From assembly GCA_963752475.1 (NCBI GenBank), contig CAVVYR010000020.1, positions 1-31,884 on the forward strand: DNA of 31,884 bases, written 5' to 3'. Below are positions 7,760-31,884 of this stretch, piece by piece. The notes beneath the pieces are model-generated. The model saw only the letters and a program-made list of their open reading frames with translations, was not told the DNA's origin and did not search any database. Both the position numbers and the translations under genes were made by a program. The stretch comes from an uncultured Chloroflexia bacterium (GTDB lineage: Bacteria > Chloroflexota > Limnocylindria > Limnocylindrales > CSP1-4). Every line of letters starts with the position of its first letter. Positions within the stretch are counted from its first letter, which is position 1.

Positions 7760-8523
7760 GGGAGCGCGCTCACCAGTCCGCCGTCCACGGGCACGATGGC
7801 GCCGGTGACATAGGACGCTGCTGGCGAGAGCAGGAACGCGGCGACGCGCCCGATCTCGGCCGGGTCGCCGTATCGACCCAGCGGGATGGTCTCTTCGGCC
7901 TGCCGCCGGACATCATCGATGGACTGGCCGGTCGCCTCGGCGCGCGTCGCGTCGAGCTGCCGGACGCGGTCGGTCGAGAACCGTCCGGCCGCGACGCCGT
8001 TGACGCGGATGGGCGCGATCTCGAAGCTGAGGTTCTTGATCAGCCCGGCCAGGCCCGGTCGCAACACGTTGCTCGTGGTCAGGCCAGGTAGCGGCTGGCG
8101 GACCGACGAGCTGAGGTTGATTACCACGGCTGGATCGGTTCCCTCGCGCAGGTGCGGCAGGGCGGAACGGATGAGTCGAAGCGTCGAGTGAAGCGTGCCG
8201 TCGATGGCCTTGGTCCATTCGGCCTCGCCAAGCGACTCGAACGTGCCGGCGGGCGGGCCACCCGAGTTGACCACGAGCAGGTCCAGTCCGCCGAGCTGGT
8301 CGATCGCCGAGGCAACGGACGTGGCCGGACCTTCAGGTGAGGCGAGATCAGCCACGACGATATCGGCGCCAAGCTCGGCGGCACGCGCGTCGAGCGTCTC
8401 GTTCGTGCGACCGACCAGCACGAGACGGGCGCCTTCGGCCGCCAGGGTTCCGGCGATCCCGGCGCCGATGCCACCGGCGCCGCCACCCACGAGCACGCGC
8501 TTGCCGTTGATGCCAAGGTCCAC
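7756..8523 (-). CDS. SDR family oxidoreductase (atypical SxxxR active-site subgroup)
   Basis: VDLGINGKRVLVGGGAGGIG, NSGGPPAG, SNVLRPGL, IPLGRYGDPAE, SYVTG...VDGG; RBS GGGAGG before GTG 8523. Confidence 0.9.
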   Translation of the reverse strand: MDLGINGKRVLVGGGAGGIGAGIAGTLAAEGARLVLVGRTNETLDARAAELGADIVVADLASPEGPATSVASAIDQLGGLDLLVVNSGGPPAGTFESLGEAEWTKAIDGTLHSTLRLIRSALPHLREGTDPAVVINLSSSVRQPLPGLTTSNVLRPGLAGLIKNLSFEIAPIRVNGVAAGRFSTDRVRQLDATRAEATGQSIDDVRRQAEETIPLGRYGDPAEIGRVAAFLLSPAASYVTGAIVPVDGGLVSALP

Positions 8524-8584
8524 GCCTTCCCTCCCAGCCAGTGCCATTACGTCGTCCCAGCCAGCATAGGCGAACGACGCGCGC

Positions 8585-9889: not shown

Positions 9890-10042
9890 CACCACAGTAT
9901 GGCCCGCGGCGACCCACTCGACCCGGACGAGCAAGGCGTCCGGCAAGCGATGGTGCAGTCGCGGTCCTGCTAGCCTCGAGCGAGCCAAGCTTCAACGACA
10001 GGCCCCACCGATGACCGCTCGACGACGGCGAACCAGCGCCGG

Positions 10043-12654: not shown

Positions 12655-13629
12655 TTGACCTTCGTCTCGTACGCTCAGAACTTCGAGGACGTGATGCTCC
12701 GCCGTGCGCTGGCGGACGTGCAACCAGGGTTCTACATCGATGTGGGAGCGCACGACCCGGTGGACGACTCCGTGACCAAGTCGTTCTATGACGCTGGCTG
12801 GCGCGGGATCAACATCGAGCCGGTCGAGCAGCGCATCGAAGCCCTGCGACGCGACCGACCAGAGGATCTCAACCTGCAGGTCGTCGCCGGAGACACGCCG
12901 GGTGTCGTGCGCTTCTACGAGGTCATCGGCACCGGATTGTCGACGACCGACGAGGAGACCGCCCGGCGCTACGAACAGGAGGGAACGCACGAAATCCGAG
13001 AGCTGACGGTGGCATCGCGTCCACTCACCGATATCTGTCGTGAACATGAGGTCGGAGACATTCACTTCCTGAAGATTGACGTGGAGGGATCGGAGCATGC
13101 GGTCCTGGCGGGCCTCGATCTCACCGTGTTCCGACCGTGGGTCATCGTAGTGGAGAGCACGCTCCCTCGGACGCAGACGGACAACTCCGACGCCTGGGCG
13201 CCGCTCGTCGAAGCTCACGAATACGAGGAGGTCTGGTTCGACGGACTGAACCGCTTCTACCTCGCGGCTGAGCACTCGACCCTGAAGGCGGCGTTCGCAG
13301 CACCACCGAACTTCTGGGATGACTTCGAGACGGCGCGAGAGCGTCGGGCCACCGAGCTCGAGGCAGAGTGCGCCGAGCTCCATCGACGCCTGACCCGTGC
13401 CCAGCACCACGTCGAGGACCATCTGCGGCGATGGGAGGCTGACGTCGCCAAGCTGCAGGCGTCGCTCCAAGGGGCGCAGGCGTCCCGTGAGGCATGGGAG
13501 AAGCGGGCGTTCGATGCCGAAGCCGAGCTGCAGGTGCTGATGCAGTCGTACTCCTGGCGAACGACGGCACCACTGCGGAGGGCAGGCTCGCTCGTGCGCA
13601 GGCTGGCACATCGGCCCAAGGAGGCGTGA
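12655..13629 (+). CDS. FkbM-family methyltransferase with coiled coil and SYSWRTTAPLR tail
   Basis: SYAQNFEDV.L.RAL, GFYIDVGA.DP..DSVT, GWRGINIEP, IHFLKIDVEG.E, FRPWVIVVE, FDGLNRFY; GGAG upstream of the TTG start. Confidence 0.92.
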   Translation: MTFVSYAQNFEDVMLRRALADVQPGFYIDVGAHDPVDDSVTKSFYDAGWRGINIEPVEQRIEALRRDRPEDLNLQVVAGDTPGVVRFYEVIGTGLSTTDEETARRYEQEGTHEIRELTVASRPLTDICREHEVGDIHFLKIDVEGSEHAVLAGLDLTVFRPWVIVVESTLPRTQTDNSDAWAPLVEAHEYEEVWFDGLNRFYLAAEHSTLKAAFAAPPNFWDDFETARERRATELEAECAELHRRLTRAQHHVEDHLRRWEADVAKLQASLQGAQASREAWEKRAFDAEAELQVLMQSYSWRTTAPLRRAGSLVRRLAHRPKEA

Positions 13630-13668: not shown

Positions 13669-13677
13669 TGCTACGTT
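13669..13677 (+). promoter_or_regulatory. Putative extended -10 of a leaderless transcript (TGc-TACGTT-N7-ATG)
   Basis: TGC TACGTT GACGCGC ATG(13685). Confidence 0.55.
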
Positions 13678-13684
13678 GACGCGC

Positions 13685-15022
13685 ATGCCTCGCAGCCTTG
13701 ACCTCCGACCAGCGACACTGCTGACGAGCGTCGTTGTCATCGCACTCATCGGGGCCGGGTTCATGCTCGCACTCGAGACCGCTGGCTCGCCTCAGTGTTG
13801 TGACGCCAGCGCATACGCGGCAGCGGCGCATAGCTTCCTCGACGGTGAGCCTAGCCTCAACCCGGCACACAACTATGGATACCCCGCATTCCTTGCGCTC
13901 CTCGACCTCATCGGACTCGACACTCCACGCAGGATCGCCTTCGCGCAGACGTCGTTGCTGTACCTCACCGTGCTCATCACGGCCTATGTCATCGCCCGCT
14001 GCACGAGCTCGGCGTTTGCTGTCGCTGTTGCCTGGCTCGCAGCTGTCACGCTGGTGCCAGCCGCGGCCTGGGGCGGCTTGATCTTCAGCGAGAGCCTAGC
14101 CGTACCGATGCTGCTGTTGGTCCTGGCGTTCGGCATCGCGACAGTGTTCCACTTGCTTCGCGATGCGCCGACCTGGGGCCTGGCAGTGGGTCTGGCCGTT
14201 GGTCTGGGCCTCACCAGCGGCTTCGTCTGGATGGTCCGACCAGGCCTGATCTGGATACCGATCGGAGTGGGCTTGGGAGTGCTGGCCTTGAGCGCCGGCC
14301 TCCTCTGGCGACGCGAGCGTCTCGGCTTGCTCGTGCCGGTGGCATTCGCCGTTTCGGCCATGCTGACGGTCGTACCCCAGCTTCAGCTAGGGGACCCACT
14401 CAAACTCGAGCTCGCCGAACTCCAGCGGGACGCGGGCCCCCAGGTGTTCCGCTATGCCACCGACCTGAGAAGCGAAGCACCGGCCGGGATGATCTTCTCA
14501 CCCCTGCCTGTGGGATCGGGTGCCGACCCGACAGTGGCCGAGCGCACGTCGGGCAGTCGCTCATGGCGCCTGACGGCGATGGCGGCCCACGTTGTGACCG
14601 GCTGGGACGCCCGGCCTTCGCCCAATTATGTCTACAAGCGGACCGGTAATCGCTGGATCGTCGCGACTGCGTTCTCGGGCTTCCTCATCGCTGGCGCGCT
14701 GGCCGCGGCCTGGCTCGTATGGGAGCGCCGCCGACGGTGGCTCGAGCCCGAGACTGCAGCGCCTGCCGCCCTGGTCGTGATGTTTGCGGCGAGCCAAGGG
14801 GTGATGTCCATGACCTCGGCGGAGTTCCGCTTCAACATCGTCGGCTGGCTGGTCGCCGCCTGCTGTCTGGCGATGCTCAGCGCCCTGGGATGGTGGACGC
14901 GTCGCCGAGCAGCAGCCTACATCGCCCTCGCCCTCGGCTTCAGCGCAGCCGTCCTGCTGGTGGGCCACATGACCCTGCTCTACTCGGAGCGGTGGCTCGA
15001 ATACGTGAACCTCCTCGGCTAG
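13685..15022 (+). CDS. Polytopic membrane protein, GT-C-like glycosyltransferase (paralogue 2)
   Basis: Shares PQCCDA..Y, HNY.Y.AFLALL, PAAAW.G...SE.LAVP, WM.RP.L.WIP, FRY.TD, TGWDARPSP.Y, TAFSGF and EFR.N..GWLVAA with 4253-5593. Convergent with the GtrA gene. Confidence 0.72.
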   Translation: MPRSLDLRPATLLTSVVVIALIGAGFMLALETAGSPQCCDASAYAAAAHSFLDGEPSLNPAHNYGYPAFLALLDLIGLDTPRRIAFAQTSLLYLTVLITAYVIARCTSSAFAVAVAWLAAVTLVPAAAWGGLIFSESLAVPMLLLVLAFGIATVFHLLRDAPTWGLAVGLAVGLGLTSGFVWMVRPGLIWIPIGVGLGVLALSAGLLWRRERLGLLVPVAFAVSAMLTVVPQLQLGDPLKLELAELQRDAGPQVFRYATDLRSEAPAGMIFSPLPVGSGADPTVAERTSGSRSWRLTAMAAHVVTGWDARPSPNYVYKRTGNRWIVATAFSGFLIAGALAAAWLVWERRRRWLEPETAAPAALVVMFAASQGVMSMTSAEFRFNIVGWLVAACCLAMLSALGWWTRRRAAAYIALALGFSAAVLLVGHMTLLYSERWLEYVNLLG

Positions 15023-15047: not shown

Positions 15048-15452
15048 TCAGCGCTCGGAGTCGGCCGTCGGCTGCTGCCCCGAGAACAACAGGCGCGCCA
15101 ATAGGTACGTGAGCGGGATGGTCACGGCGATGGCGGCGAGCGAGGCGAGCGCCTCTGGCAGGCCGAGGACATCGACCCAGGCCGTCACGACCGCCAGGCC
15201 GACCCCGTACTGCACGACGTAGATGAGCGGGAACAAGGCAAGCGTACGCACGCTGGTCGTGGCCCGGAAGACGAAGGTGCTGTTGAGCACATAGGAGATG
15301 CCGATGCCGACGACGAAGACCACGCTGTAGGCCAGGGCGTAGGGCAGGATCTGCAGCAGCAGCAGGTAGAGGCCGAGCGTGATGAACGTGGTAGTCGCGC
15401 CGGCGATGAGGAAGCGGACGCCGGACCCGGTCAGGCGCGGGCCCCGGCTCAC
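15048..15452 (-). CDS. GtrA-family lipid-carrier-sugar flippase
   Basis: 134 aa, 4 TM; VRFLIAG..TT, SYVLN..FVF; GTG start overlaps the upstream stop. Confidence 0.9.
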   Translation of the reverse strand: MSRGPRLTGSGVRFLIAGATTTFITLGLYLLLLQILPYALAYSVVFVVGIGISYVLNSTFVFRATTSVRTLALFPLIYVVQYGVGLAVVTAWVDVLGLPEALASLAAIAVTIPLTYLLARLLFSGQQPTADSER

Positions 15453-16213
15453 CGGTCGCGCGCCTGCTGGACGAGCGAGACGAACTCCCCGTAGTCACGG
15501 ATGTAGTCAGCCGGATCGTAGGGATCGCTCGCCAGCACCAGCAGGACCGCGTCCGATGAGCACTTGTACTGGATCCCCCAGGTCATCGCCGGCAGATGCA
15601 GCCCGTATGACGGGCTGTCCAGCACGAACTCCTGTCGCATCTCACCGTCGTCGGCGACCACAGCCAGCTGGCCCTGCGCCGCCACTAGCAGCTGCTGGCA
15701 CTGGCGGTGGGCGTGAGCACCGCGGGTCTCGGTGGAGGGCACGTCGTAGACCAAGAAGAAACGGGCGGGCTGGAACGGGATATCGGCTCCGGCCTCGGCG
15801 GCCGAGAGGCTGCCGCGGATGTCAGCCACGGTCCGGAAGTGGTGGAAGGTCACGCCGCGCACGAGCGACTCACGCATGTGTGAATCGCCGGGGCGGACCA
15901 CCGGCGAGGCCTCCTCGGCGTGGCTGTCGAGGTAGCCGACGATGCGTGCCGGATTGCCCTCGACAAGGGCGAGCGGCGGGACCGAGGTGGTGACCACGGA
16001 GCCGGGGCCCACGTGTGACCGATGGCCGATCTCGGTACCCGGCAGGATCGTGGCGTTGGCACCGATGACGCAACCCGAATGCAGCGTCGTCTGAGCCTCG
16101 GCGTCGTCCGGTGTCGCGAGGACGGCGGCGTTGGGGCCGATGGAGACGTCTGCCTCGATGATCACGCCATCGGCGACATAGGCACCGGGCAGGAGGGTGG
16201 GGTCAGCGGCCAT
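15449..16213 (-). CDS. wxcM: WxcM-like protein: shortened hexapeptide-repeat acyltransferase domain fused to FdtA/QdtA-type 3,4-ketoisomerase cupin
   Basis: IGANATILPG.EIG....VG.GSVVT..VP....V.GNPARIVGY, then DIRGSLS, IPF.P.RFFLVYDVPS.E.RG.HAH..C.Q, ADDG, W..QY...SDAVLLVLAS.PYD..DYIRDY. Confidence 0.85.
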   Translation of the reverse strand: MAADPTLLPGAYVADGVIIEADVSIGPNAAVLATPDDAEAQTTLHSGCVIGANATILPGTEIGHRSHVGPGSVVTTSVPPLALVEGNPARIVGYLDSHAEEASPVVRPGDSHMRESLVRGVTFHHFRTVADIRGSLSAAEAGADIPFQPARFFLVYDVPSTETRGAHAHRQCQQLLVAAQGQLAVVADDGEMRQEFVLDSPSYGLHLPAMTWGIQYKCSSDAVLLVLASDPYDPADYIRDYGEFVSLVQQARDR

Positions 16214-16215
16214 GG

Positions 16216-17235
16216 CTAGGGTTCAATGCCGTCTTGCGGCTCGTCGTTGTGGCCAGGCGCGACTTCGTCGGTCGGTCCCTCGACGTGGGCACGGACACCG
16301 GTGGGTCCGGACTCGTGATCGACCTGTTGCCAGATGACATGGAGCGGGCGCTGTTTGGTGTTCTCATAGGCTCGCCACGCATACGAGCCCACGATACCCA
16401 ATCCCACCAGATTGGTCGCGCCGACGAAGACGATGAGGACGGCCAGCGCCGTGAAGCCCTGGACCTCGGCGAGGCCCAGGAGCCGGACCACGGCCGCGAG
16501 CAGCCCGAAGGCACCGAACGCGAGTGCGAGAAGGCCACCGACCCGGGTCAGCAAGCGGACCGGCAGGTCGGTCACGGAGAAGACGCTGTCGGTGAGGTAG
16601 TCCATCTTCTTGCCAAAGGTCCAGGCCGAGCGACCATGGACTCGTTCGCGCCGCTCATATGTCACGTAGGCCCGGCGGAAGCCCAGCCAGAACACCTGTG
16701 CCACTAGCGAACTATGGTGCTCCTCGAGCGCCAGTAGCTGCTGGCGGAATGCCTGGTTGCAGGCGAAGACGTCGACGCCACCAGCCGGCATGTCTCGCAC
16801 GATCAACCGCCGGTAGATGCCCCAGAAGATCTGCGCCGGCAGCCGCGTGCTGGCAGGGTCCTGCCGTCCCTCGCGCACGCCAAGCACGACATCGGCAGCA
16901 TCGTCGCGGAGGATCTCGTCCATCTCCAAGATGAGCTCGGGCGGCTCCTGCAGATCGGCTGCCATGATCGCGAACCGGTCCCCAGTGGCGAGCTGTAGCC
17001 CGGCCCGCGCAGCCGGGAAGGCACCGAAGTTGCGCGACAGCACGGCCAGGCGAGAGCGCACGGGCCACGTCGGCAGTGCCTCCTGGAGCACCTCATAGGA
17101 GCGGTCGGGACTGCCGTCGACGACGAATACCGCCTCGAGCTCATCCGGCACCGCCTCGGCCATCCCCTGCACTGCCTCGAGCAAGTCGGGGATGGACTCC
17201 TCGTTGCGGTAGACGGGGATGATCAGCGAAAGCAT
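16216..17235 (-). CDS. GtrB-like undecaprenyl-phosphate glycosyltransferase (GT2, two C-terminal TM helices)
   Basis: LSLIIPVYRNE, VVDGSPDRS, LSRNFG, MAADLQEPPELI, R..G.S.WT, two TM helices, G.YAWR.YENTK.RP. Confidence 0.92.
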   Translation of the reverse strand: MLSLIIPVYRNEESIPDLLEAVQGMAEAVPDELEAVFVVDGSPDRSYEVLQEALPTWPVRSRLAVLSRNFGAFPAARAGLQLATGDRFAIMAADLQEPPELILEMDEILRDDAADVVLGVREGRQDPASTRLPAQIFWGIYRRLIVRDMPAGGVDVFACNQAFRQQLLALEEHHSSLVAQVFWLGFRRAYVTYERRERVHGRSAWTFGKKMDYLTDSVFSVTDLPVRLLTRVGGLLALAFGAFGLLAAVVRLLGLAEVQGFTALAVLIVFVGATNLVGLGIVGSYAWRAYENTKQRPLHVIWQQVDHESGPTGVRAHVEGPTDEVAPGHNDEPQDGIEP

Positions 17236-17237
17236 GG

Positions 17238-18374
17238 TCAGGTTCCCCCCTCGGTGAAGAACGTACCCACGACTTCGGTCACTCGTGCCTGCTCGTTGGG
17301 GCCGAGACCCGGATAGCAGGGCAACGACACGACGCTAGCGCAGGCTGCCTCGGTCACCGGCAGCTTCTTGGTGCGGCCGTGCTCGACGTACGCGGGCTGG
17401 AGGTGATCGGGGATCGGGTAGTGGACATCGCTGCCGATGCCGTTCGCAGCGAGGTGAGTCCTGAAGCGCTCGCGTTCGGAGATACGCGCGACGAACAGGT
17501 GAGCTACGTCCTCCTCGCCACGCACCGGAGTCAGCAGGATAGGCAAGCCCGAAAGGTCGCGGCGATAGGCATGTGCCACGAGGCGGCGCATCTCGTTCCA
17601 CTCGTCGAGGTGAGGCAGCCGATCGTTGAGGACGGCGGCCTGGATCTCATCCATGCGGCTATTCCGGCCGGCGGGCAAGTCCACGCGGTACTTGGCCTCC
17701 CAGCCATACTGCCGCAGCGATCGCACCCGATCCGCCAGCTCGGAATCGTCGGTCACGATGGCTCCGCCGTCGCCGGCCGCACCCAGGTTCTTGGTGGGGT
17801 AGAAGCTGAAGCAGCCGATAGCGGCGAAGCTCCCGGCGCGAGCGCCGCCATGCGTGGCGCCGTGGGCCTGAGCGCAATCCTCGATCACTGGGACGTCGGA
17901 GCGAGCAGCTTCGGCCAGGATGGCCTCGGTGTTGGCCAACTGCCCATATAGGTGCGTCACGATGATCGCCGCGGGCCGGTCCGCTCCCGTGCGGCCAGCG
18001 AGGGCCGCGGACAACGCGACCGGAGACATGTTCATGGAGGCTTCGTCGATCTCGACGTACTCCGGGATGGCCCCGACGGCGCGGACAGCGGTGCTGCCGT
18101 AGTGGCCGGCGTTGGCCACGACGAGGACATGGTCATCGGGACCGACCTCGAGGCTCCGCAGCGCGATCTCCAGGGCGTCTGTCCCGTTCGCGACGGCGAC
18201 ACACCGCTCGACGCCGCAGTACTCGGCAAAGGCCTCCTCGAAGCGTGCGACCTCTGCCCCCAGGACGTAGCGGCCCGACCGCACGACGCGGTCGATGGCT
18301 GCCCTGACATCGACCGCCCCCTCGATGGCGTCCAGGGAGACGAACGGGACGTGCTCCGCTGCCTCGGCGCTCAT
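17238..18374 (-). CDS. DegT/DnrJ/EryC1/StrS PLP aminotransferase (FdtB/QdtB-like)
   Basis: VANGTDALE, THLYGQ, IEDCAQAHGA, SFYPTKNLGA.GDGGA, NSRMDEIQAA, HYPIPDH.QPAY. Confidence 0.95.
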   Translation of the reverse strand: MSAEAAEHVPFVSLDAIEGAVDVRAAIDRVVRSGRYVLGAEVARFEEAFAEYCGVERCVAVANGTDALEIALRSLEVGPDDHVLVVANAGHYGSTAVRAVGAIPEYVEIDEASMNMSPVALSAALAGRTGADRPAAIIVTHLYGQLANTEAILAEAARSDVPVIEDCAQAHGATHGGARAGSFAAIGCFSFYPTKNLGAAGDGGAIVTDDSELADRVRSLRQYGWEAKYRVDLPAGRNSRMDEIQAAVLNDRLPHLDEWNEMRRLVAHAYRRDLSGLPILLTPVRGEEDVAHLFVARISERERFRTHLAANGIGSDVHYPIPDHLQPAYVEHGRTKKLPVTEAACASVVSLPCYPGLGPNEQARVTEVVGTFFTEGGT

Positions 18375-19708
18375 GCTTCGCGCTTCTTCTTCAGCCGAGC
18401 GGAGTAGAAGTCGCTCTCATCGGCGAGGACCACCTTGGTCGGCAGCATGTACGCGGCCAGTTGGTCCGCGCAGGCGTGGCGGATACGCTTCTTGAGGGAG
18501 GCTACCGACTCAGGCTCGACCGACGCGACCTTGGCCACCACGACCTGACCCAGGAGGGGATGCGACTCGCCGTAGACGGCGACGTCCTTGATGTTGGGGA
18601 GTTGGAGGATGGCCTGCTCGACCTCCGCCGGGTACACCTTCTGCCCCGCGACGTTGATGAGGTCGCTGTCACGGCCGAGGATGCGCAGCCAGTCGCCGTC
18701 GACCTCCACCAGGTCTTCCGTGTTGAACCATCCGCCCGCATCAAACGGGCTCGGCGCGTTCAGGTAGCCGACCATGGCGTAGTCCGACTTGATCCAAAGC
18801 ACACCGTCCACGACCTTGGTCTGGAAGCCCTCGCCGCCGACCTTGACCCAGAGCGAGCCGTCCTCGCGGGACTTGGAGCGCAGCACCCCCAGTTCCGACA
18901 GGCCGTAGGTCTGCTGAAGCAGGACGCCTGGGAAGGCCCGGCCCACGCGGTCGAGCGTCTCTTGGGGCATGACCTCCGTGCCGTAGGTGATGCGCTTGAG
19001 CGAACTGAGATCGTACTGTTCGACGGCGCCGGAGCGGATCAGCATGTTGAGGAACGACGGGGTGGTCGGGAGGATCTCGACGCGGTGCTGCTGGATGGCC
19101 GAGCAGATGGCCACGACCGATCGGTCGGGGACCGTGACCACCGTGCCCAGCCCGCTCAGGATGGCCAGGATGGTGTTGACGCCGCCGAAGTGGTCGAGCA
19201 TGAGGAAGGCGATAGCCACGCGGCTAGGGCCCTGCTTGCGGAACTTCTCGGCGACCAGCCGCATGTCGTGGAGGATGGCCTTGGGCGTCCCGGTCGACCC
19301 CGACGAGAAGAGGATCATGCCGGCATCGCGGCTCGATCGAAGACCGGCCACGAGCTCGTTCGTCGAGGTCCTATCCGTGCTCGAGAATGCCGGTTCACCA
19401 CTGGTGTAGTCGATGACCCACTGCGCCTCCGCCAGGTCGATGACGGTGTCGAGGTCGACGATGGCCTCCTGCGTGAACGGCACCACGATGCAGCTTGAAC
19501 GCATCAGCGCAAAGAGCAGGCACACGACCTCCGGCGAGTAGTCGCCCATGACCACCACGACGTCGCCGTCGGCCACGCCGTTCTCGCGCAACTGCTCACC
19601 GTACTGCTCGGTCAGCCTGTTCAGCTGCCTGTACGAGAACGCCCGCCCCTTGTCGATGAAGGCATTCCCATCGGGGGCGGTCTCGAAGCGTTCGAAGAGG
19701 AACTCCAT
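18371..19708 (-). CDS. AMP-dependent acyl ligase (ANL superfamily)
   Basis: LFSSGSTGTPK, YGLSE, WFNTEDL, GR.SDLINVAGQKVYPAEVE; RBS GAGGT. Confidence 0.93.
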   Translation of the reverse strand: MEFLFERFETAPDGNAFIDKGRAFSYRQLNRLTEQYGEQLRENGVADGDVVVVMGDYSPEVVCLLFALMRSSCIVVPFTQEAIVDLDTVIDLAEAQWVIDYTSGEPAFSSTDRTSTNELVAGLRSSRDAGMILFSSGSTGTPKAILHDMRLVAEKFRKQGPSRVAIAFLMLDHFGGVNTILAILSGLGTVVTVPDRSVVAICSAIQQHRVEILPTTPSFLNMLIRSGAVEQYDLSSLKRITYGTEVMPQETLDRVGRAFPGVLLQQTYGLSELGVLRSKSREDGSLWVKVGGEGFQTKVVDGVLWIKSDYAMVGYLNAPSPFDAGGWFNTEDLVEVDGDWLRILGRDSDLINVAGQKVYPAEVEQAILQLPNIKDVAVYGESHPLLGQVVVAKVASVEPESVASLKKRIRHACADQLAAYMLPTKVVLADESDFYSARLKKKREA

Positions 19709-19731
19709 GGCGCTACCTCACTTGCCGGACG

Positions 19732-20745
19732 TCACGTCCGAAGGATGCCGGTGGCCCAGGACATCCCGACGCCGAAACCACTGACGAGCACGAGCCCTCC
19801 CGGCTGCAGACAGCCCTGGTCCGTCGCGTCCTTGAGGGCGATGGGAATCGAGGCGGACACCGTGTTGCCGATGTCGCGGATGTTGGTGAACGCCTTCTCG
19901 GATGGGATCCCGAGTGACCGATTCAGCGCGTCCAGCGTGACCTTGCTCGCCTGGTGCATCACGACCAGGTCGATGTCATCGATGGTCAGGTCGTTACGTT
20001 CGAGCACCTCCCGGATCTGCGGCGGCACCCTGGCCTCGACGAACGCGAGGATGCCGGAGCCGTCCATGTAGATGTTGTCCTGTGACCGGACGCTGCCACC
20101 CAGATCGGCCCTGGGCTCGGCCGTCTCCGCCGATCGTGGCAGCCTGCAGCCTCCAGCCGGAACGATGAACATCTGGTGGTCCTTCCCGGCCGTGGCGCAC
20201 TGCACGTCGACGAGACCTCGGTCCGACTCCGAGACCGAGATCCACGTGGCCGCGGCCCCGTCACCGAAGAGGGTGCGGGCGGCCCGATCCCGTGGATGGA
20301 TGTACTTCGAGTAGGTATCGGCCGTGACGAGCAGGATGTCGCGGGCGATGCCGCCGGCGATGAGCGACTGTGCCAGCGCGAGGCCGTACACGAAGCCGGA
20401 GCAGGCGAGGTTGAAGTCGAGGGCGAAGACGTCGTCATCGAGCCCCAGGTGGCCATGCAGGAGCGTCGAGTCGGGTGGGAGCAGGTAGTCCCCGCTTTGA
20501 GTGCAGAACAGGATGGCGCCGATGCGCTCGCGCGCCTCAGGATGCTCGGCCAGCAGGCGGTCGCAGGCGTCGCGGGCCAGGTCGTAGGCGGTCTCGTCCG
20601 GCCGGGCGATGTGTCGCGACTCCACGCCCGTCCGCGTGACCACGCGCCGCATGTCCCAAGTCGGGTTCTCGTCGACCAGCATCTCGTTCGTGACGACCTG
20701 GTCGGGCAAGGCGTAGGCGATGGCTTGGATCTCAGCGTGCAGCAC
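19732..20745 (-). CDS. 3-oxoacyl-ACP synthase III (FabH-like)
   Basis: Cys-His-Asn triad in LACSGF, HQAS and GNTVSASIP; also LFGDGAAA and GFGVGMSW. Confidence 0.93.
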   Translation of the reverse strand: MLHAEIQAIAYALPDQVVTNEMLVDENPTWDMRRVVTRTGVESRHIARPDETAYDLARDACDRLLAEHPEARERIGAILFCTQSGDYLLPPDSTLLHGHLGLDDDVFALDFNLACSGFVYGLALAQSLIAGGIARDILLVTADTYSKYIHPRDRAARTLFGDGAAATWISVSESDRGLVDVQCATAGKDHQMFIVPAGGCRLPRSAETAEPRADLGGSVRSQDNIYMDGSGILAFVEARVPPQIREVLERNDLTIDDIDLVVMHQASKVTLDALNRSLGIPSEKAFTNIRDIGNTVSASIPIALKDATDQGCLQPGGLVLVSGFGVGMSWATGILRT

Positions 20746-21419
20746 TAGCTTGCGGCTCCGGAAGTTGCGGGCAGGCCGAGCAGTTCGCGAAGGGGCTCGT
20801 TGGCACGCTGGATCTCCCCGAAGACGGCCGGCCTCCCGTGGCCGGGATGGACCTCAGTGTCCGCCGGGAGCAACTCCCACAGCCGCTGCAATGAGGTCCT
20901 CAGTCCATCGCTGTCGGACTCCGGCATCGACCCGAGGAAGATGCCTTGTCGGTACAGGGTATCGCCCGTGAAGGCGTGTCCGTCGATCATCAGCACGACG
21001 CTGCCGGGCGTATGCCCAGGAACGTGCAGGACCTGCACCGTGATCTCACCCTCGGACAAGGACATGCCTTCGTCCAGGGTCACGGTCTCCGACGGTGCCT
21101 CTATACGCCAGGGCATCTTGAGAGCCATCATGGTGAAGTTGCTCGCGCGTGCCACGCGGCGGTCGGCGTCATGCAGGTACACGTCCACCTCGTACCGCTG
21201 GCGCAGGTGCTCCACCGACCCCACGTGGTCGAAGTGACCGTGGGTGCAAATGATGACCCGTGGCCTGAGTCCTGATCGCCCCAGAGCCGCTTCGATGGAC
21301 TCGCGATCGAGGCCCGGATCGATGAGGAGACAGCCACCCGAACCAGTGGGAACGATGTAGGTATTGGCCTGGACTTCGCGGTTCACCACCCGGATGATCT
21401 CCGGCCCGACCGCGCTCAT
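20745..21419 (-). CDS. Metallo-beta-lactamase-fold hydrolase (glyoxalase II-like)
   Basis: NTYIV, LIDPG, THGHFDH, PGHTPGS, FTGDTL, PGHG. Confidence 0.93.
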   Translation of the reverse strand: MSAVGPEIIRVVNREVQANTYIVPTGSGGCLLIDPGLDRESIEAALGRSGLRPRVIICTHGHFDHVGSVEHLRQRYEVDVYLHDADRRVARASNFTMMALKMPWRIEAPSETVTLDEGMSLSEGEITVQVLHVPGHTPGSVVLMIDGHAFTGDTLYRQGIFLGSMPESDSDGLRTSLQRLWELLPADTEVHPGHGRPAVFGEIQRANEPLRELLGLPATSGAAS

Positions 21420-22132
21420 CGATGGATGCCGCCAAGGAAGACGGTCTGACCGGTGACGTAGCCGCTGGCGGGCGAGGCGAAGAAGTCGATGACGTTGATG
21501 ACGTCCTCGGGCGTCGCAAGGCGGGAGATGGGCAGGCTGGCCAGCAGGTTCTCGACGGTCTCCGGCGGGAGCTGTTCGAGCATGTCAGTCTCGAGCGCGG
21601 TCACGCCAACGGCATTGACCGTGACGCCGTAACCCGCGAATTCCTTGGCCAGGACGGACGTCAGCGTCGAGGTGGCCGACTTCGTCGCGGCGTAGATCGC
21701 CTCGCCCACGGGTGAGAGGACTGAAGCGATCGAGCCGATGTTGATGATGCGTCCCATCGGGCGCTTGCGCATCAGTTTGGCCGCTTCGCGGGACACATAG
21801 AAGCCACCGAGCAGGTTCGTGCGCACCATCTCCTCGGCTTGCGAAGACGGGGTTAGCATGGCGTGTCGGACGGCTACGACCGCAGCGTTGTTGACGGCGA
21901 TGTCTACGGCTCCGTGTGACCGCGCGAGCTGCTGGAAGACCGCGCGGACGGCCGAGTCGTCTCCGATGTCGGCTTGGTGATGCTCGTAGGCCGCGTGTGC
22001 GATGCTGCTTGGGCCTCGACTGATGCCGACCACCGAGGCGCCCTCGACCAGGAAGTGCTCGGCGAGGATACGGCCCAGGCCCTTGCGCGTCCCAGTGATG
22101 ACGGCGACGTGGTCTCGGTAGCGCAGCGTCAC
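21416..22132 (-). CDS. SDR ketoreductase (FabG-like)
   Basis: ITGTRKGLG, NNAA, GRIINIGS, YAATK, TGQTVFLGG. Confidence 0.92.
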   Translation of the reverse strand: MTLRYRDHVAVITGTRKGLGRILAEHFLVEGASVVGISRGPSSIAHAAYEHHQADIGDDSAVRAVFQQLARSHGAVDIAVNNAAVVAVRHAMLTPSSQAEEMVRTNLLGGFYVSREAAKLMRKRPMGRIINIGSIASVLSPVGEAIYAATKSATSTLTSVLAKEFAGYGVTVNAVGVTALETDMLEQLPPETVENLLASLPISRLATPEDVINVIDFFASPASGYVTGQTVFLGGIHR

Positions 22133-22428
22133 TTCTCCGCGGCGAGCTCGAGGATGTAGTCGCGCAGGGTCGTGACCGTCGAGTACGGAGACACCGGGCG
22201 GGACATGGCTCGATCGTCAGCAAGGCTGATACCCAGCTCGTTCTCGACATTCATGGTCGTTTCGACGTCCGTGATCAGCGAGACGAACTCGAGCGAGTCG
22301 AGTGCCGCGTCCATCCCGAACAAGGTCGTCTCGGTGGAAATGGCGACCTGATCGTCGGGCTCTCGCTCCGAGTTGATGGCTTCCAGAGCTCGGAAGATGG
22401 CGGCGTCGATGGAGTCGGCAGTGATCAT
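22129..22428 (-). CDS. Acyl carrier protein
   Basis: 99 aa, acidic, LFG....LDSLEFVSLI phosphopantetheine-Ser motif; RBS AGAAAGGA; TGATG overlap with the upstream stop. Confidence 0.88.
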   Translation of the reverse strand: MITADSIDAAIFRALEAINSEREPDDQVAISTETTLFGMDAALDSLEFVSLITDVETTMNVENELGISLADDRAMSRPVSPYSTVTTLRDYILELAAEK

Positions 22429-23033
22429 CAGGTCCTTTCTGCGGGTGGTGTCGAGTTGATGAGGGCGTTCATGCGCGGCAGGGCGGTCTCGCGGAACTCT
22501 TGCTCCATCATGCCGACGCACACGATGTCGTGGAAGCGGTCGCCGATGAATTGGTGCTCGCGCAACCGGCCCTCCTCCTTCATGCCCAGGTAGAGGTGCC
22601 ACTTCAGCATCTGGTGGTTCTCGGCCACAACCGCACCGTGCAGCCGATGGAGCCCTAGGCGGTCGAAGGCCAGCTCATAGAGCAGCTTCAGCGCCTCGAC
22701 AGCGGCCGGCACACCCTTCACGGAATCGGGCTCCCCGATGAGGAACCTCGCGGGTTCCGCTCGCTGCTGGACACGGTCGACGTTCACGAGAGAGAGCATC
22801 CCCACGGACTGACCGTCCTTCAGCTCGATGATGAAGTTGTACTCGGTGTCGGGCCGTGCGCCGATCCAGGCGGCTTGCTCGGCCACGGTCGTGGCTCCAC
22901 GGTTGAGCAGCTCGGCGCGGTCACCCAGCCGCCATCCCAGTGTCGTCCCCGCATCCGCGGCTCGAAGCGGGCGCAACAGGACGTGCTCACCCGTCAGCTC
23001 GATATCCTCGATTGTCTGCACCACATCGCTCAC
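22428..23033 (-). CDS. GNAT N-acyltransferase (RimJ/PseH-like)
   Basis: VLLRPL...D, FIIE...GQ.VG, AFDRLGLHRL...V..EN, GMKEEGRLREH; GTG 23033 with GAGGG upstream. Confidence 0.88.
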   Translation of the reverse strand: MSDVVQTIEDIELTGEHVLLRPLRAADAGTTLGWRLGDRAELLNRGATTVAEQAAWIGARPDTEYNFIIELKDGQSVGMLSLVNVDRVQQRAEPARFLIGEPDSVKGVPAAVEALKLLYELAFDRLGLHRLHGAVVAENHQMLKWHLYLGMKEEGRLREHQFIGDRFHDIVCVGMMEQEFRETALPRMNALINSTPPAERT

Positions 23034-23145: not shown

Positions 23146-25317
23146 TCACGGTCCCTTGTGGGACTGTAGATCCAGCACTCGCTCCGGCGCGGAACCCACG
23201 TGCAGCGAGACAAAGAACGCTCTTGGGTCACCAGCGACGGCACAGCCAGGCGAGGTCACCTCGATCTCGACAGTGGCCTCGCCAGCTTCATCTAGCTCGA
23301 CCGGGACCGCGACAGACTGGCGCCCCCCATCGACCGAGGCCAGCTCCCCGTTCGCCAGCAGGCTCGCAGGCCCACACGGTGAAGGGCCGAACTCGAGCTC
23401 GACGTGGCTGCTGCCGGCGGGCAGGCCCGAGACGGCCACGACCGCCAAATCCTCGACCTGCCACCAGAACGGGTCCGTCGGAGTCCCTTCGGATCCGCTG
23501 AAGCCGCCGAGCGGGGTGACCACCGGGATTTGCGCCTCGTCGAGCCACTCGAAGTAGATCCAACGCTCCCTCGCGCTGGCCAGGTCCGGCACGCCCAGGA
23601 CGCTTGTATAGCGCTGCAGGTCGGCGGGGACCTCGAAGGAGGTCGTGTCCACGACGACGCCGCAGAAGCCCGCCTGTCGGCCGGCCTCGGCCAGCCTCTC
23701 GATGTCGTCGCGCATGTCGAGGCCCCACGTGCCCTCCGCCGTCCCCTTCATGCCACCATAGCTCCAGCGCAGGTCGTCGCTGACGAGGTAGGGGATCATC
23801 AGGGAGTAGGCCCAGAGCCCGTTGATCGAGCCGGCCTCCGGGAACTCCAGCAGCGGGAGCTGCAGGATCGGGCAGCCCTCAGGCAGCTCCGCCTCGAGCT
23901 CGTTCACGAAAGGCCTAACCTCGCGATCGAGAGCGTCGCTGTCGCCATAGTTCGCGAACCCGAGCGTGAGCGTCTCAAAGGCCAGGACTAGCGCCGCTAC
24001 AGCGGCAAGTCCGTTGCGGAGCCAACGCCGCCGCCGCAGCAGCTCGGTGGCGAGGATGCCCGCGGCCGCGGCCGCGAGGATAGCGATGAACACCGAGAAG
24101 CGACCCCAGGCCCTGATCTCGGGCGTCACGAGGTAGGCGAAGAGCACCCCGCCGCCAACGGACGCGAACATGATGAGGACCACAAGCAGGAGGCCCTGCA
24201 GGTAGCCGATCCGGCGCTGAGCACGAAGCCAGCTGCTGAGCCAGCCACCGGCAGCGGCAGGCCGGAAGAGTGCCACGACCAGCACCACGACCACGAGGAA
24301 GAGGGCGGCGATGATGACCACATTGAAGGCTGCGGTGCCCTCGTCGTAGACAAGCAGCCGGTTGAACTCTGGCCGCAGCTTGGTCAGGGCCGTGGCGAAC
24401 ATCGACCTCGTGTCCGGCAGGAACAGCGATGCCACCGTCCCGCCGTAGAGGGTCGAGTCGTGCGCGGTCCGATGCCAGCCGGTACCGTACGTGTGCTGGG
24501 CGGCGCTGTTCAGCACCACCGTCACTCCCATCACAGCCGGGACCGCGACCGCGATGACCACGCTGGGCCACCTGATGGGTCGTGCTCGCCAGGAGAGCAG
24601 CCGACGGACGAGCACGACGGCCATCAGGAGCGAGGTCATGAAGGCGTAGTAGATGCCACCGAGACCGGCCAACAGCACGAGCGCCAGCCCGCCGACCAGC
24701 CGCAGCGGACGCCCGCGGTCGAAGTAGCCTCGCCAAACGGCGACGACCAGGCCGACGCCGACGATCGCAGGAGCGTAGCTGGCGAGGAAGAGGTGACCGA
24801 CCGCGCGGGCGAAGTGCCACGGCAGCAACGCCAACGCGGCCGCAAGTACGATGGCACCGAAGCGATAGACACCCAGCAGGCGCAGCAACAGGTAGGCGCT
24901 GAGCCCGATCTGGAAGAAGCCGACGATGATGTACGAGTTGATCGCGGTCACAGCGTCGCCGAACACTCGGGCCAGAGGCACGAGATGCGCCCAGTGATAG
25001 GTGTCGGTCAGGATCGGGACCTGCATGATGTCCTGGAACCCCGGGTAGCCGAGGTTCGGGTTGCGCGTAAGGTCGCCGCCTTCGAGCGTGCCCTTCAGGA
25101 ACCCGGTCAGAGGTGTGAGGTCACCACCCGCACCCAGGAGCACATCGAGATCGGCTGGATTCAGGCGATAGACGACCACGGCCACCGCGACGCAGAGCAG
25201 TCCGACGAGAGCGCCGATGACTGACTCATGCATCCAGTCCCGGGTCGCCCATGGGGCCCGCTCGCTGGGGCTCACGTAGGCATTGCTCCCAGGCTCCCTG
25301 ACCGGACCCTCCGTCAA
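23146..25317 (-). CDS. Large polytopic membrane protein, probable GT-C-fold glycosyltransferase with C-terminal extracytoplasmic domain; start uncertain
   Basis: GGD after TM1, NPNLGYPG, LPWHFAR..GHLFLASY, GIYYAF, EIRAWGRFS, ILQLP...FPE, LRWSYG.MKG; many TM segments. TTG 25317 overlaps the rmd stop (TTGA). Confidence 0.72.
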   Translation of the reverse strand: MTEGPVREPGSNAYVSPSERAPWATRDWMHESVIGALVGLLCVAVAVVVYRLNPADLDVLLGAGGDLTPLTGFLKGTLEGGDLTRNPNLGYPGFQDIMQVPILTDTYHWAHLVPLARVFGDAVTAINSYIIVGFFQIGLSAYLLLRLLGVYRFGAIVLAAALALLPWHFARAVGHLFLASYAPAIVGVGLVVAVWRGYFDRGRPLRLVGGLALVLLAGLGGIYYAFMTSLLMAVVLVRRLLSWRARPIRWPSVVIAVAVPAVMGVTVVLNSAAQHTYGTGWHRTAHDSTLYGGTVASLFLPDTRSMFATALTKLRPEFNRLLVYDEGTAAFNVVIIAALFLVVVVLVVALFRPAAAGGWLSSWLRAQRRIGYLQGLLLVVLIMFASVGGGVLFAYLVTPEIRAWGRFSVFIAILAAAAAGILATELLRRRRWLRNGLAAVAALVLAFETLTLGFANYGDSDALDREVRPFVNELEAELPEGCPILQLPLLEFPEAGSINGLWAYSLMIPYLVSDDLRWSYGGMKGTAEGTWGLDMRDDIERLAEAGRQAGFCGVVVDTTSFEVPADLQRYTSVLGVPDLASARERWIYFEWLDEAQIPVVTPLGGFSGSEGTPTDPFWWQVEDLAVVAVSGLPAGSSHVELEFGPSPCGPASLLANGELASVDGGRQSVAVPVELDEAGEATVEIEVTSPGCAVAGDPRAFFVSLHVGSAPERVLDLQSHKGP

Positions 25318-26221
25318 GCCTTGGTCACCTCCTGCAGCACGTCGGACAGGGTCGTCTCGAACGGAATCGCTGGCGACCAACCCACCCAATCGTGCAGGCG
25401 CTGCGCGTCACCCACGATCAGCTCAGGATCGCTGGCTCGCAGCAGCGACGGGTCCAGGTCGAACTCGACCGGCCAGTCGACCGACCGGCTGAAGTGGTCG
25501 ATGATGTCGCGCACCTTGACCGGGTGACCGGTGGCCACGTTGAAGACCGGCGGCTGGGGGATCTCTTCATCAGCGGCCGCGTGCTCCAGCATCAGGCGAT
25601 AGGCCCGTACGGTGTCCCGCACGTCACCGATATCCCGGGCCACGTCCACGTTCCCGACACGGATCGAGTCGCGGCCATCCCTCTTGGCGGCCGCGATCCG
25701 CCCGGCCATGGCCGGGACCACGAAGTCGTGACGCTGCCCTGGCCCGGTGTGGTTGAAGGACCGGGCCACGACGGCCCGCAGCCCCTGCATCGCACCCCAC
25801 AGTGTTACGCCTTCGGCCCCCAGCTTGGAGTGCCCGTAGACGTTGCGCGGCCCCAGCCGGCTGGACTCGGTCAGGGGCTGGCCACACTCGGGGTGGGCGT
25901 AGACATCAGCTGAACCGACGACCAGCAGCGCGGGACGCGGCTCGAGCATGCGGCCAGCCTCGACGACCGAGAGTGTCCCTCCGACGTTCGTGCGCAGGGC
26001 CAGCCCGGGATCCTCCTCCGCGTCGGGCGCGAACGCGACACCCGCCAAGTGCGCGACGCCGTCAGGCAGCTCACTGCGCAACAGCGCCTCGACCGCCTTG
26101 GCGTCGGCGACATCAAGCTGATCGATCGGCGGAGCCGGGATCGGCACATGACCGGCCTGCTCAAGCTCCTTCAAGAGCCAGCGCCCGACGAAGCCATCGG
26201 CGCCGGTCACAAGGATGCGCA

Positions 26222-26222
<1 letters not shown>
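25314..26222 (-). CDS. rmd: GDP-4-keto-6-deoxy-D-mannose reductase (Rmd-like; GDP-D-rhamnose or its 4-epimer)
   Basis: MRILVTGADGFVG, HLAG, VGSADVY, YGHSK, RSFNHTGPGQ, VGN.D..RD..DVRD.V.AY; TGATG-coupled to gmd. Confidence 0.8.
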
Positions 26223-27298
<1,076 letters not shown>

Positions 27299-27401
27299 TC
27301 ATCGGATGCTCAGGCCACGGTGGTGGCCTGAGGCGGTGTGCTCAGCACCGGGCGCCGCACTCGAAACCCATTCCGTTCACAGAGTGAGGAGGAGCGCGGC
27401 T

Positions 27402-31659: not shown

Positions 31660-31884
31660 CACTGAACAGGATACGGAGGCCACGCCGAGAACGCTGACGG
31701 GCTATGCTCTGGTCGATGTCAGGACAGGCCCTGAGCGGGCGATCGGACAATTCGAGGGTGCCTTGGGCCCCACGCTGGCAGGCCTTGCTGTCAGTCACTG
31801 ACCCGCGCTGACCGCTGCCCGGGATGTCCTCCGCTCAGCCTGAGCTACCCGTCACTGCCATCGAGCCTGCGGATCGCTGGCCAG

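Follow-up and report, generated by a model that had tools for sequence, protein, structure and literature searches.

N-acyl groups other than acetyl that decorate 6-deoxy-aminosugars often serve as serological or phage-receptor determinants, and the biosynthesis of such groups is mostly obscure. Here, we analyze a block of ten genes that may direct the synthesis and transfer of one such sugar, located at positions 15048-23033 of contig CAVVYR010000020.1 (C20) from an uncultured Chloroflexia bacterium (assembly GCA_963752475.1). The window, by which we mean the whole stretch of DNA that was analyzed, is the complete 31,884-bp contig, and it belongs to a genome of 4.25 Mb in 38 contigs that is 88.8% complete. 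The block is predicted to encode a GNAT-family acyltransferase, a divergent acyl carrier protein (ACP), a 3-oxoacyl reductase (KR), a metallo-beta-lactamase (MBL)-fold hydrolase, a ketoacyl-ACP synthase III (KAS III), an adenylate-forming ligase (AMP-ligase), a DegT aminotransferase, a family 2 glycosyltransferase (GT2), a WxcM-like fusion protein, and a small GtrA-family membrane protein. We think it rather probable that this block serves to attach an N-acylated 3-amino-3,6-dideoxyhexose to an envelope glycan based on D-rhamnose. Of its testable elements, the most interesting, as far as the models described below can be trusted, is a candidate ACP-dependent GNAT aminosugar N-acyltransferase in a widespread cassette.

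The sugar and membrane genes of the block resemble region 3 of the Xanthomonas wxc locus (wxcK, wxcL, wxcM, wxcN, and wxcO), in which an aminotransferase, a GT2, a fusion of a left-handed beta-helix (LbH) domain with an FdtA domain, and a GtrA-like protein are encoded in this order, with gmd and rmd alongside. The likeness is one of domain content and gene order, by description. In Xanthomonas campestris, one study reports that wxcK and wxcN mutants lose the N-acetylfucosamine (FucNAc) side branches of the D-rhamnan (PMC4878081); another describes wxcM as bifunctional, combining an acetyltransferase with an isomerase, and characterizes wxcO as variable, possibly acting on undecaprenol-linked sugars (PMC13133917). 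The Xanthomonas region has no cassette of ACP, KAS, KR, ligase, MBL, and GNAT genes, and its sugar is N-acetylated, whereas in the window the LbH domain is truncated, and LpxC and Omp85 were not found in the host genome.

The acyl genes recall the viosamine island of Pseudomonas syringae (vioA, vioS, vioB, vioR, and acp), which joins an aminotransferase and an acyltransferase with a dedicated ACP, a KAS III, and a 3-oxoacyl reductase, and places 3-hydroxybutanoyl on a dTDP-aminosugar; the same report describes a vioR mutant without N-(3-hydroxybutanoyl)viosamine and the annotation of VioB as dTDP-viosamine acetyltransferase (PMC3927599). The island differs from our locus in its 4-amino sugar and its flagellin target, and it has no AMP-ligase or MBL hydrolase. 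Transfer is cytoplasmic and carried out by VioT, whereas for the window we propose a polyprenyl phosphate carrier and a GT-C-fold transferase. In Flavobacterium psychrophilum, the O-polysaccharide genes wfpC to wfpG encode two ketoacyl-ACP synthases besides an ACP, a reductase, and an acyltransferase, in a pathway in which an aminosugar is predicted to receive 3,5-dihydroxyhexanoyl from the ACP (PMC6519341). That system, which is a prediction only, differs in its UDP-Qui2NAc4N sugar, in its acyltransferase, a PglD (LbH) homologue, in being Wzy dependent, and in having no ligase, MBL hydrolase, or GNAT.

Further comparisons concern single enzymes and the general logic of export. FdhC of Acinetobacter nosocomialis (5kta) has the GNAT fold and is a detectable relative of the window's GNAT family, and we take it to N-acylate dTDP-3-amino-3,6-dideoxygalactose with 3-hydroxybutanoyl from a coenzyme A (CoA) thioester. 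It is a distant relative, since the GNAT family profile scores higher with SpeG-type GNATs (63.8 bits) than with FdhC (41.8 bits), and it has no linked ACP cassette; VioB is of the LbH type and is not a GNAT. FdtD of Shewanella denitrificans (4mzu), a bifunctional N-acetyltransferase/3,4-ketoisomerase, has the same LbH-then-cupin architecture as the WxcM-like protein of the window, which begins at FdtD residue 53 and is without a 7-residue loop. The Arn (L-Ara4N) and Gtr/YfhO systems share a logic in which an aminotransferase and cytoplasmic N-acylation are followed by the loading of undecaprenyl phosphate through a GT2, by a small membrane flippase, and by a GT-C enzyme on the outside. ArnB and ArnC models match the window's aminotransferase and GT2 below their cut-offs. 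The locus departs from Arn and Gtr in its acyl group, in its sugar, and in the nucleotide used (dTDP), and the GT-C protein of the window has no Pfam match and carries a CBM35-like domain.

The acyl cassette and the predicted GNAT-ACP complex

Related loci were collected by a ligase-anchored scan of one genome per species, which gave at least 592 related places, of which the best 80 were examined. Among these 80 genome loci (numbered here with the prefix L), tblastn found an ACP gene in 72, KR in 74, MBL hydrolase in 35, KAS in 38, a GNAT orthologue in 29, an aminotransferase in 35, and FdtA in 34. The 29 GNAT-bearing loci hold FdtA in 27 cases, the aminotransferase in 25, and both MBL and KAS in 28, while FdtA without GNAT was seen in 7 of the 80, short or truncated contigs being among them. 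Eighty metagenome loci showed the same pattern (GNAT in 35, FdtA in 41, and aminotransferase in 38). The GNAT gene lies directly upstream of the ACP gene in every one of the 29 loci, with gaps of -14 to +89 nt, and in the window the two overlap by 1 nt; the ACP and KR genes are no more than 127 nt apart in 27 of 29 loci, and the KR and MBL genes no more than 70 nt in 25 of 25. Since the order GNAT-ACP-KR-MBL with tight spacing repeats in 29 loci from other phyla, the arrangement is deemed to be beyond chance, and judging from these associations the cassette is a putative dedicated N-acylation module for 3-amino-3,6-dideoxyhexose.

The evidence for reading the 99-aa protein as an ACP is weak but consistent. 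NCBIfam ACP models match it at E 2.6e-4 with 20.8 bits (cut-off, 70), it has no Pfam match at E 0.01, and the Pfam PP-binding model gives 13.8 bits and matches 4 of 34 family members at E<=1. The serine of its DSL motif (S45) is nearly invariant among 34 homologues, and six of the seven weak matches of the family profile in the PDB are ACPs (E 0.03-0.85). When the family was aligned with one Pfam-positive ACP, taken from L008, no support emerged (hhalign 0.6%), the DSL motifs being aligned nonetheless.

The predicted complex of the GNAT with this protein reached an interface score (ipSAE) of 0.68, against 0.11 for the best control, with contacts agreeing to at least 97% between runs and a predicted local distance difference test score (pLDDT) of at least 87 for the partner. 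In the predicted interface, ACP residues 37-54, including Ser45, face GNAT residues 99-112, 141-149, and 186-196, and we take GNAT residues 99-112 to correspond to the strand and helix by which GNATs hold the pantetheine arm. Because the adjacency is invariable (29/29) and the complex prediction passes its controls, direct docking and hand-off of the acyl group from the ACP to the GNAT, which the first-pass annotation of this DNA had suggested, are supported by the model, though not shown.

An alternative that we consider improbable is that the GNAT uses an acyl-CoA, for instance 3-hydroxybutanoyl-CoA in the manner of FdhC, with the ACP, KAS, KR, ligase, and MBL hydrolase supplying or recycling the CoA thioester or serving another acceptor. 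The nearest solved relatives of the GNAT are indeed CoA-using SpeG-type enzymes, FdhC being more distant, and to our knowledge the characterized GNAT sugar N-acyltransferases (PseH, FdhC, and WecD) are all users of CoA thioesters; moreover, an MBL-fold thioesterase and an adenylating ligase could in principle release an acid and re-activate it. However, the GNAT and ACP genes adjoin wherever both were found in the GNAT-bearing loci, the complex model places the ACP serine at the cofactor site of the GNAT, and the cassette contains no CoA-transferase.

The remaining cassette enzymes were assigned from family models, motifs, and solved relatives. The best NCBIfam match of the KR is FabG (160.9 bits, below the cut-off of 296), and both the TGxxxGxG and the YxxxK motifs are present. 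The MBL hydrolase, which has the HxHxDH motif, matches GloB (85.4 bits) and SolJ (80.3 bits), both below cut-off, and is closest in the PDB to 2zwr and to the glyoxalase-II-like YcbL. The KAS III passes the cut-off of NF006829 (254.9 against 249 bits), matches 3gwa in the PDB at 265 bits, and has both Pfam KAS III domains; the contexts of its Cys, His, and Asn motifs are visible in the sequence, at positions that we assume to be those of E. coli FabH. The solved relatives of the ligase are distant only (FadD13, 100 bits), and its family is tightly conserved, with 59-88% identity among the 120 hits listed. It seems unlikely to us that the ligase loads a medium- or long-chain fatty acid in place of a C2-C4 acid, that KAS III and the reductase turn it into a 3-hydroxy fatty acyl-ACP, and that the GNAT makes an N-(3-hydroxyacyl)-3-aminosugar, chemically similar to lipid A, which after passage over polyprenyl phosphate and the GT-C would hydrophobically anchor or cap an envelope rhamnan in a bacterium seemingly without lipopolysaccharide; a short acyl group is the reading that we develop below.

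The cassette occurs in three forms. In the short form, the KAS III is orthologous to that of the window (44-54% identity, 8 of 80 genome loci), and the closest metagenome relatives (75-76% ligase identity, e.g., L101) are of this form and hold FdtA and the aminotransferase. An Acidovorax locus (L016) has the identical cassette order together with a stand-alone FdtA, an aminotransferase, RmlA/RmlD, and Wzx. The long form, which is commoner, has a different KAS and, inserted between KAS and ligase (L008, 6673-9993; L028, 6784-9770; L033, 7952-9754), a fusion of a MaoC dehydratase with a short-chain dehydrogenase/reductase (SDR), a HAD-like protein of about 600 aa, and a second ACP of 80 aa before the ligase. 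The HAD match of the 600-aa protein is weak, and we suppose that it may be FkbH-like. Long-form cassettes imply a different, more elaborate acyl group. A minimal triad of ACP, KR, and ligase (L040-L077, in Chloroflexota and others) is without GNAT, MBL, and KAS, and in nine of these loci an LbH acyltransferase-like gene lies nearby and no GNAT. Carriers of the cassette belong to Pseudomonadota, Actinomycetota, Bacteroidota, Gemmatimonadota, Chloroflexota, and Binatia, and most of the loci lie within ordinary Wzx- or ABC-type glycan clusters.

Probable sugar pathway and the WxcM-like fusion

The solved structures closest to the DegT aminotransferase are C-3 aminotransferases, namely, DesV (2oga, 275 bits) and QdtB (3frk, 251 bits), followed by WlaRG and WbpE (226-275 bits for the whole range), while relatives acting at C-4 score lower (perosamine synthase, 150 bits); its NCBIfam matches are PseC/ArnB models, below cut-off. 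The enzyme thus probably acts at C-3, like WxcK, FdtB, and QdtB. The pair of FdtA and aminotransferase, from which the formation of a 3-amino-3,6-dideoxyhexose had already been proposed, points to Fuc3N or Qui3N as the putative sugar, and the identity of the nearest aminotransferases agrees with that proposal.

The best solved relative of the WxcM-like fusion is FdtD (227.5 bits), to which it aligns over residues 53-303 (E 2e-66), and its isomerase domain keeps the HAH motif. Its LbH domain, which had been overlooked when the FdtA isomerase domain was correctly recognized, is a truncated hexapeptide acetyltransferase domain: compared with FdtD and two homologues of 312-316 aa, it is without about 52 N-terminal residues and a loop of 6-7 residues, while its C-terminal coils are well conserved with respect to FdtD. 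The open reading frame (ORF) leaves no room for a longer N terminus, as only 2 nt separate it from the GT2 stop codon. The isomerase half looks intact and the acetyltransferase half eroded, and on the basis of these alignments, decay of the acetyltransferase is the likeliest reading of the LbH domain, with its role taken over by the GNAT.

We give little credence to the converse idea that the LbH domain still N-acetylates the sugar, to Fuc3NAc or Qui3NAc, and that the GNAT/ACP cassette modifies another amine or another molecule of the same glycan. The conservation of the C-terminal coils speaks for it, as does Xanthomonas, where wxcK-L-M-N makes FucNAc branches with no acyl cassette; in addition, full-length LbH-FdtA fusions (312-316 aa) lie beside the GNAT/ACP cassette in two metagenome loci (L164, 6966-7916; L168, 4108-5046), so that LbH and GNAT are not strict alternatives and the LbH domain of the window could still acetylate. 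On the other hand, FdtA is a stand-alone protein in 27 of the 29 GNAT loci, and no LbH domain was detected in the GNAT-bearing genome loci, which makes the GNAT the sole linked acyltransferase there. The missing N-terminal residues and conserved loop of the window's LbH domain, and the lack of a second aminotransferase in the block, also argue against this idea.

Concerning the supply of nucleotide sugars, RmlB was found over cut-off on another contig of the genome (C1, 408.3 against 365.1 bits), while the best RmlA-like match in the genome, with 215.5 bits, is below the cut-off of 360.65. In the window, Gmd passes the cut-off of TIGR01472 (419.5 against 415 bits), and the start codon of the neighboring Rmd-like gene, whose product has the Rmd structures 6x3b (170.8 bits) and 2pk3 (133.9 bits) as best solved relatives, overlaps the Gmd stop codon in TGATG. 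We read Gmd and Rmd as the probable backbone supply (GDP-D-rhamnose) and not as the source of the aminosugar. A GDP route, in which Gmd would form GDP-4-keto-6-deoxymannose and the FdtA-like domain and aminotransferase would turn it into a mycosamine-like GDP-3-amino-3,6-dideoxyhexose to be acylated, strikes us as very unlikely: Gmd, over cut-off, adjoins the cluster and is accompanied by an SDR in the block, with RmlB elsewhere and RmlA below cut-off, but that SDR is Rmd-like and explains Gmd as GDP-D-rhamnose supply, as in Xanthomonas wxc, related loci have RmlA/RmlD or another nucleotidyltransferase instead of Gmd (L016 and L033), Gmd homologues occur in only 4 of the 80 genome loci and at 23-27% identity, and the solved FdtA, QdtA, and FdtD enzymes act on dTDP sugars.

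Probable lipid-carrier route and proposed pathway

The GT2 matches the NCBIfam models PgfS (139.6 bits, cut-off 500) and ArnC (132.8 bits, cut-off 529), far below both cut-offs, and two C-terminal hydrophobic helices are visible in its sequence. Gene neighborhoods that unite the cassette with GT2 or GtrA take different shapes. A Polaromonas locus (L017) has the order GNAT-ACP-KR-MBL-KAS-ligase-FdtA-aminotransferase-GT2-GtrA, with Wzt and a GT-C orthologue, whereas in a Limnocylindrales metagenome-assembled genome (L004) the order runs GT2-GtrA-FdtA-aminotransferase-GNAT through to the ligase, followed by a PMT_2 GT-C. L005, L113, and L108 have GT2 and/or GtrA with the cassette in a Binatia-type order; L108 adds a PMT_2 GT-C with an NPCBM domain, and the small ORF after its GT2 is not GtrA-like by BLASTP. 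In L105, the genes GT2-GtrA-FdtA-aminotransferase converge on the ligase.

The upstream GT-C gene of the window encodes 747 aa, or 695 aa from the probable ATG, and its stop codon lies 112 nt before the GNAT start. The protein, like several unassigned neighbors, matched no Pfam family, also at E<=5, and 40 family members gave four stray single-member matches only. Its AlphaFold2 (AF2) model, computed from a 40-row alignment (pLDDT 87.9; predicted template modeling score, pTM, 0.87), has only GT-C enzymes as top Foldseek matches (E down to 4e-6), and VIA-align gave a Z of 19.5 for Pmt4 (root mean square deviation of 4.5, 373 aligned), of 17-18 for STT3, AftD, and AftA, and of 14.6 for ArnT. Residues 618-735 resemble CBM35 (Z 7.7), and all 40 aligned homologues keep D90, which lies close to the beginning of the membrane domain. 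The family comprises 4014 representative clusters at E<=1e-3; one database fragment of it has a precomputed DUF6311 label. The genome holds one copy each of this GT-C family and of GtrA, both at this locus. The family aligns with the GT-C orthologue of L017 (hhalign 100%, E 1.2e-42, 511 columns), while hhalign gave no support for the 504-aa protein of L017, the 606-aa protein of L004, or the 817-aa protein of L108. A homologue of the GT-C (65% identity) and one of the ligase (81%) each lie on a 57,848-base contig, which we infer to be one and the same.

The convergent 448-aa membrane protein, which the first-pass annotation had put forward as the final transferase, matched no Pfam (E<=5) or NCBIfam model. 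Its family aligns with that of the upstream GT-C (hhalign 84%, E 7.5e-6, 212 columns), with a CCD motif aligned to the invariant Asp, and shows no support against the PMT_2-positive GT-C of L004 (hhalign 4%). The AF2 model, from a 4-row alignment, failed (pLDDT 39). Homologues of the protein (69%) and of the ligase (88%) are each found on a 17,602-base contig. Its paralogue in the window had been overlooked; both are polytopic proteins of about 446 aa, and a search at E<=1e-8 through a sample of 300 further genomes of the class, many of them incomplete, detected neither. Among its Atlas feature neighbors are PMT_2/RgtA-like clusters, which we regard as a lead only. With the hhalign match and the failed fold model as the evidence for the 448-aa protein, the earlier assignment has the weaker support, and the fold model of the upstream GT-C and its orthologue in L017 make that protein the likeliest candidate for the extracytoplasmic final transferase, ranked above the 448-aa protein, although either or both could act in this step. 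With GtrA (70.4 bits), the GT2, and a linked GT-C with fold Z values up to 19.5, the locus fits a three-component polyprenyl-phosphate route, as had been surmised earlier.

Our proposal for the block as a whole, the N-acylation of a dTDP-linked 3-aminosugar and its export to a rhamnan, would run as follows. RmlB would supply dTDP-4-keto-6-deoxyglucose, which the FdtA domain, going by its family, would convert into the 3-keto sugar, and the aminotransferase would yield dTDP-Fuc3N or dTDP-Qui3N, as its closest solved relatives suggest. The 445-aa ligase would adenylate a small acid and load it onto the divergent ACP, the KAS III would condense once, and the FabG-like reductase would give a 3-hydroxyacyl-ACP, with the glyoxalase-II-like MBL hydrolase proofreading or releasing thioesters; the acyl group would most simply be 3-hydroxybutanoyl or a short homologue. 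The GNAT would take this group directly from the ACP and N-acylate the sugar, a step favored by the strict gene adjacency and the passing complex model. By analogy with wxcL/wxcN, Gtr, and Arn, the ArnC/GtrB-like GT2 would put the acyl-sugar on polyprenyl phosphate, and GtrA would help the lipid-linked acyl-sugar across the membrane. A GT-C enzyme, likeliest the upstream one with the CBM35-like domain, would finally transfer the sugar, on the outside, to a rhamnan for which Gmd and Rmd would supply GDP-D-rhamnose. Evolutionarily, we read the locus as a wxcK-L-M-N-type side-branch module fused with a widespread acyl-Fuc3N/Qui3N cassette.

In addition to the points credited above to the alternatives, several considerations weigh against this pathway. 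The identity of the ACP is weakly recognizable by sequence. Of the solved complexes, 116 of 157 attain the ipSAE mark used for the complex, as do 2 of the 215 mismatched pairs, but this calibration is approximate, since alignments of the families built within this analysis were used. Co-conservation of the acyl genes with the sugar and Gtr genes, which had been expected from the window, holds for FdtA (27 of the 29 GNAT loci) but only rarely extends to GT2/GtrA: among 160 loci, the cassette is coupled to these in about 6, with many contigs too short for a judgment. In the long-form loci, the ligase adjoins the second ACP, and in the window its substrate and its acceptor are putative. Biochemically, all of the proposed steps are putative.

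Locus organization, host and implications

The ten genes named in the first-pass annotation are all present on the minus strand as co-oriented and translationally coupled ORFs, with GNAT first and GtrA last, and nine of them have Pfam matches, the exception being the 99-aa ACP (Table 1). The junctions given for them were reproduced exactly from the coordinates, with overlaps of 1 nt (GNAT/ACP and MBL/KAS) or 4 nt (ACP/KR, KR/MBL, ligase/aminotransferase, and WxcM/GtrA), gaps of 2 nt (aminotransferase/GT2 and GT2/WxcM), and a single 23-nt gap (KAS/ligase). The unit is larger than had been noticed, since GT-C, Rmd, and Gmd lie co-oriented upstream of the ten-gene core and the co-oriented block comprises at least 13 genes, from 27268 down to 15048. 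A promoter and terminator scan returned 0 promoter-like and 2 terminator-like sites, under shuffle expectation.

Table 1. Features of the ten-gene core, its flanking genes, and other genes of the window
Feature	Position	Strand	Evidence or remark
GNAT-family N-acyltransferase (putative)	22428-23033	-	PF13302 49.8 bits, cut-off 25.4
Divergent ACP, 99 aa (putative)	22129-22428	-	DSL serine; NCBIfam ACP match under cut-off
FabG-like 3-oxoacyl reductase (SDR, KR)	21416-22132	-	adh_short; adh_short_C2 139.5 bits
Glyoxalase-II-like MBL-fold hydrolase, putative thioesterase	20745-21419	-	Lactamase_B 97.3 bits
KAS III (FabH family)	19732-20745	-	ACP_syn_III and C-terminal domain; NF006829
Adenylate-forming ligase, 445 aa	18371-19708	-	AMP-binding and AMP-binding_C
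DegT aminotransferase	17238-18374	-	PF01041 334 bits
GT2, ArnC/GtrB/PgfS-like, WxcL position	16216-17235	-	PF00535 71.9 bits
WxcM/FdtD-like LbH and FdtA fusion	15449-16213	-	FdtA PF05523 166.8 bits, Hexapep 56.6 bits
GtrA-family small membrane protein, WxcN position	15048-15452	-	PF04138 70.4 bits, cut-off 26.1
GT-C-fold membrane protein, C-terminal CBM35-like domain	23146-25389, probable ATG 25233	-	AF2 model, structural matches
Rmd-like reductase	25314-26222	-	PDB relatives 6x3b, 2pk3
Gmd, GDP-mannose 4,6-dehydratase	26222-27268	-	TIGR01472, PF16363 432.9 bits
Convergent 448-aa polytopic membrane protein, possible small GT-C	13676-15022	+	Start 13685 in database gene calls
Paralogue of the 448-aa membrane protein	4253-5593	-	46-47% identity
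FkbM-family methyltransferase	12655-13629	+	Just upstream of the 448-aa protein
rve/HTH integrase-type transposase	5719-6792	+	
DHDPS-family gene, SDR, and 467-aa protein, in a row	6824-9988	-	Methyltransf_24 (467-aa protein)
947-aa protein	27306-30149	+	GT4 domain, C-terminal only
Sulfotransferase-like gene	30152-30895	-	Sulfotransfer_2, Gal-3-O-sulfotransferase models
Sulfotransferase-like gene	30892-31683	-	Sulfotransfer_2, Gal-3-O-sulfotransferase models

Several other genes of the window may also belong to glycan synthesis. The 947-aa protein, encoded divergently from Gmd, may be a multidomain backbone glycosyltransferase, and the two adjoining sulfotransferase-like genes beyond it may, from their model matches, serve in glycan sulfation. 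The row formed by a gene of the dihydrodipicolinate synthase (DHDPS) family, an SDR gene, and a Methyltransf_24 gene may represent a further sugar-modification pathway. Between this DHDPS-family gene and the paralogous membrane protein, the transposase gene lies inside the glycan locus.

Searches for LpxC and Omp85 in the genome (88.8% complete) found neither, the control genomes giving the expected results, and for this reason the acceptor is probably an envelope polysaccharide or glycoprotein and not the O-antigen of a lipopolysaccharide. Searches at E<=1e-30 detected no ligase homologue in samples of 24 genomes of the same genus and 16 of the same order, many of them incomplete. The absence of the ligase from these 40 related genomes, together with that of the 448-aa protein from the 300 genomes mentioned above, fits a strain-variable surface-glycan island. 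We also considered whether the contig could be a binning contaminant, of which its composition gives no sign: its tetranucleotide correlation with the rest of the genome is 0.9915, against a mean of 0.9939 (standard deviation, 0.0028) for 40 chunks of 30 kb, 22.5% of which are lower.

As to novelty, part of the design of the locus is already in print, namely, the Xanthomonas wxcK-L-M-N/gmd/rmd layout and N-acyl sugars built by ACP, KAS III, and KR, the latter as genetic or genomic proposals. What stands is the cassette in which a GNAT, an AMP-ligase, and an MBL hydrolase are tied to FdtA, which was not found in print in a search with subscription literature and supplements outside its scope.

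The analysis defines a compact and widely distributed cassette made up of GNAT, ACP, KR, MBL hydrolase, KAS III, and AMP-ligase, together with FdtA and the aminotransferase. Its culturable carriers (Duganella, Caulobacter, Modestobacter, and Acidovorax) make the pathway directly testable. On the strength of structural models, a GT-C fold and a probable role can be assigned to a large unannotated family of membrane proteins, and the window illustrates the recombination of a wxc-type side-branch module with an acyl cassette. If the GNAT does take its acyl group from the ACP, this would add a new donor class for sugar-modifying GNATs and would represent the first GNAT-type, acyl-ACP-dependent aminosugar N-acyltransferase system, present across many phyla.

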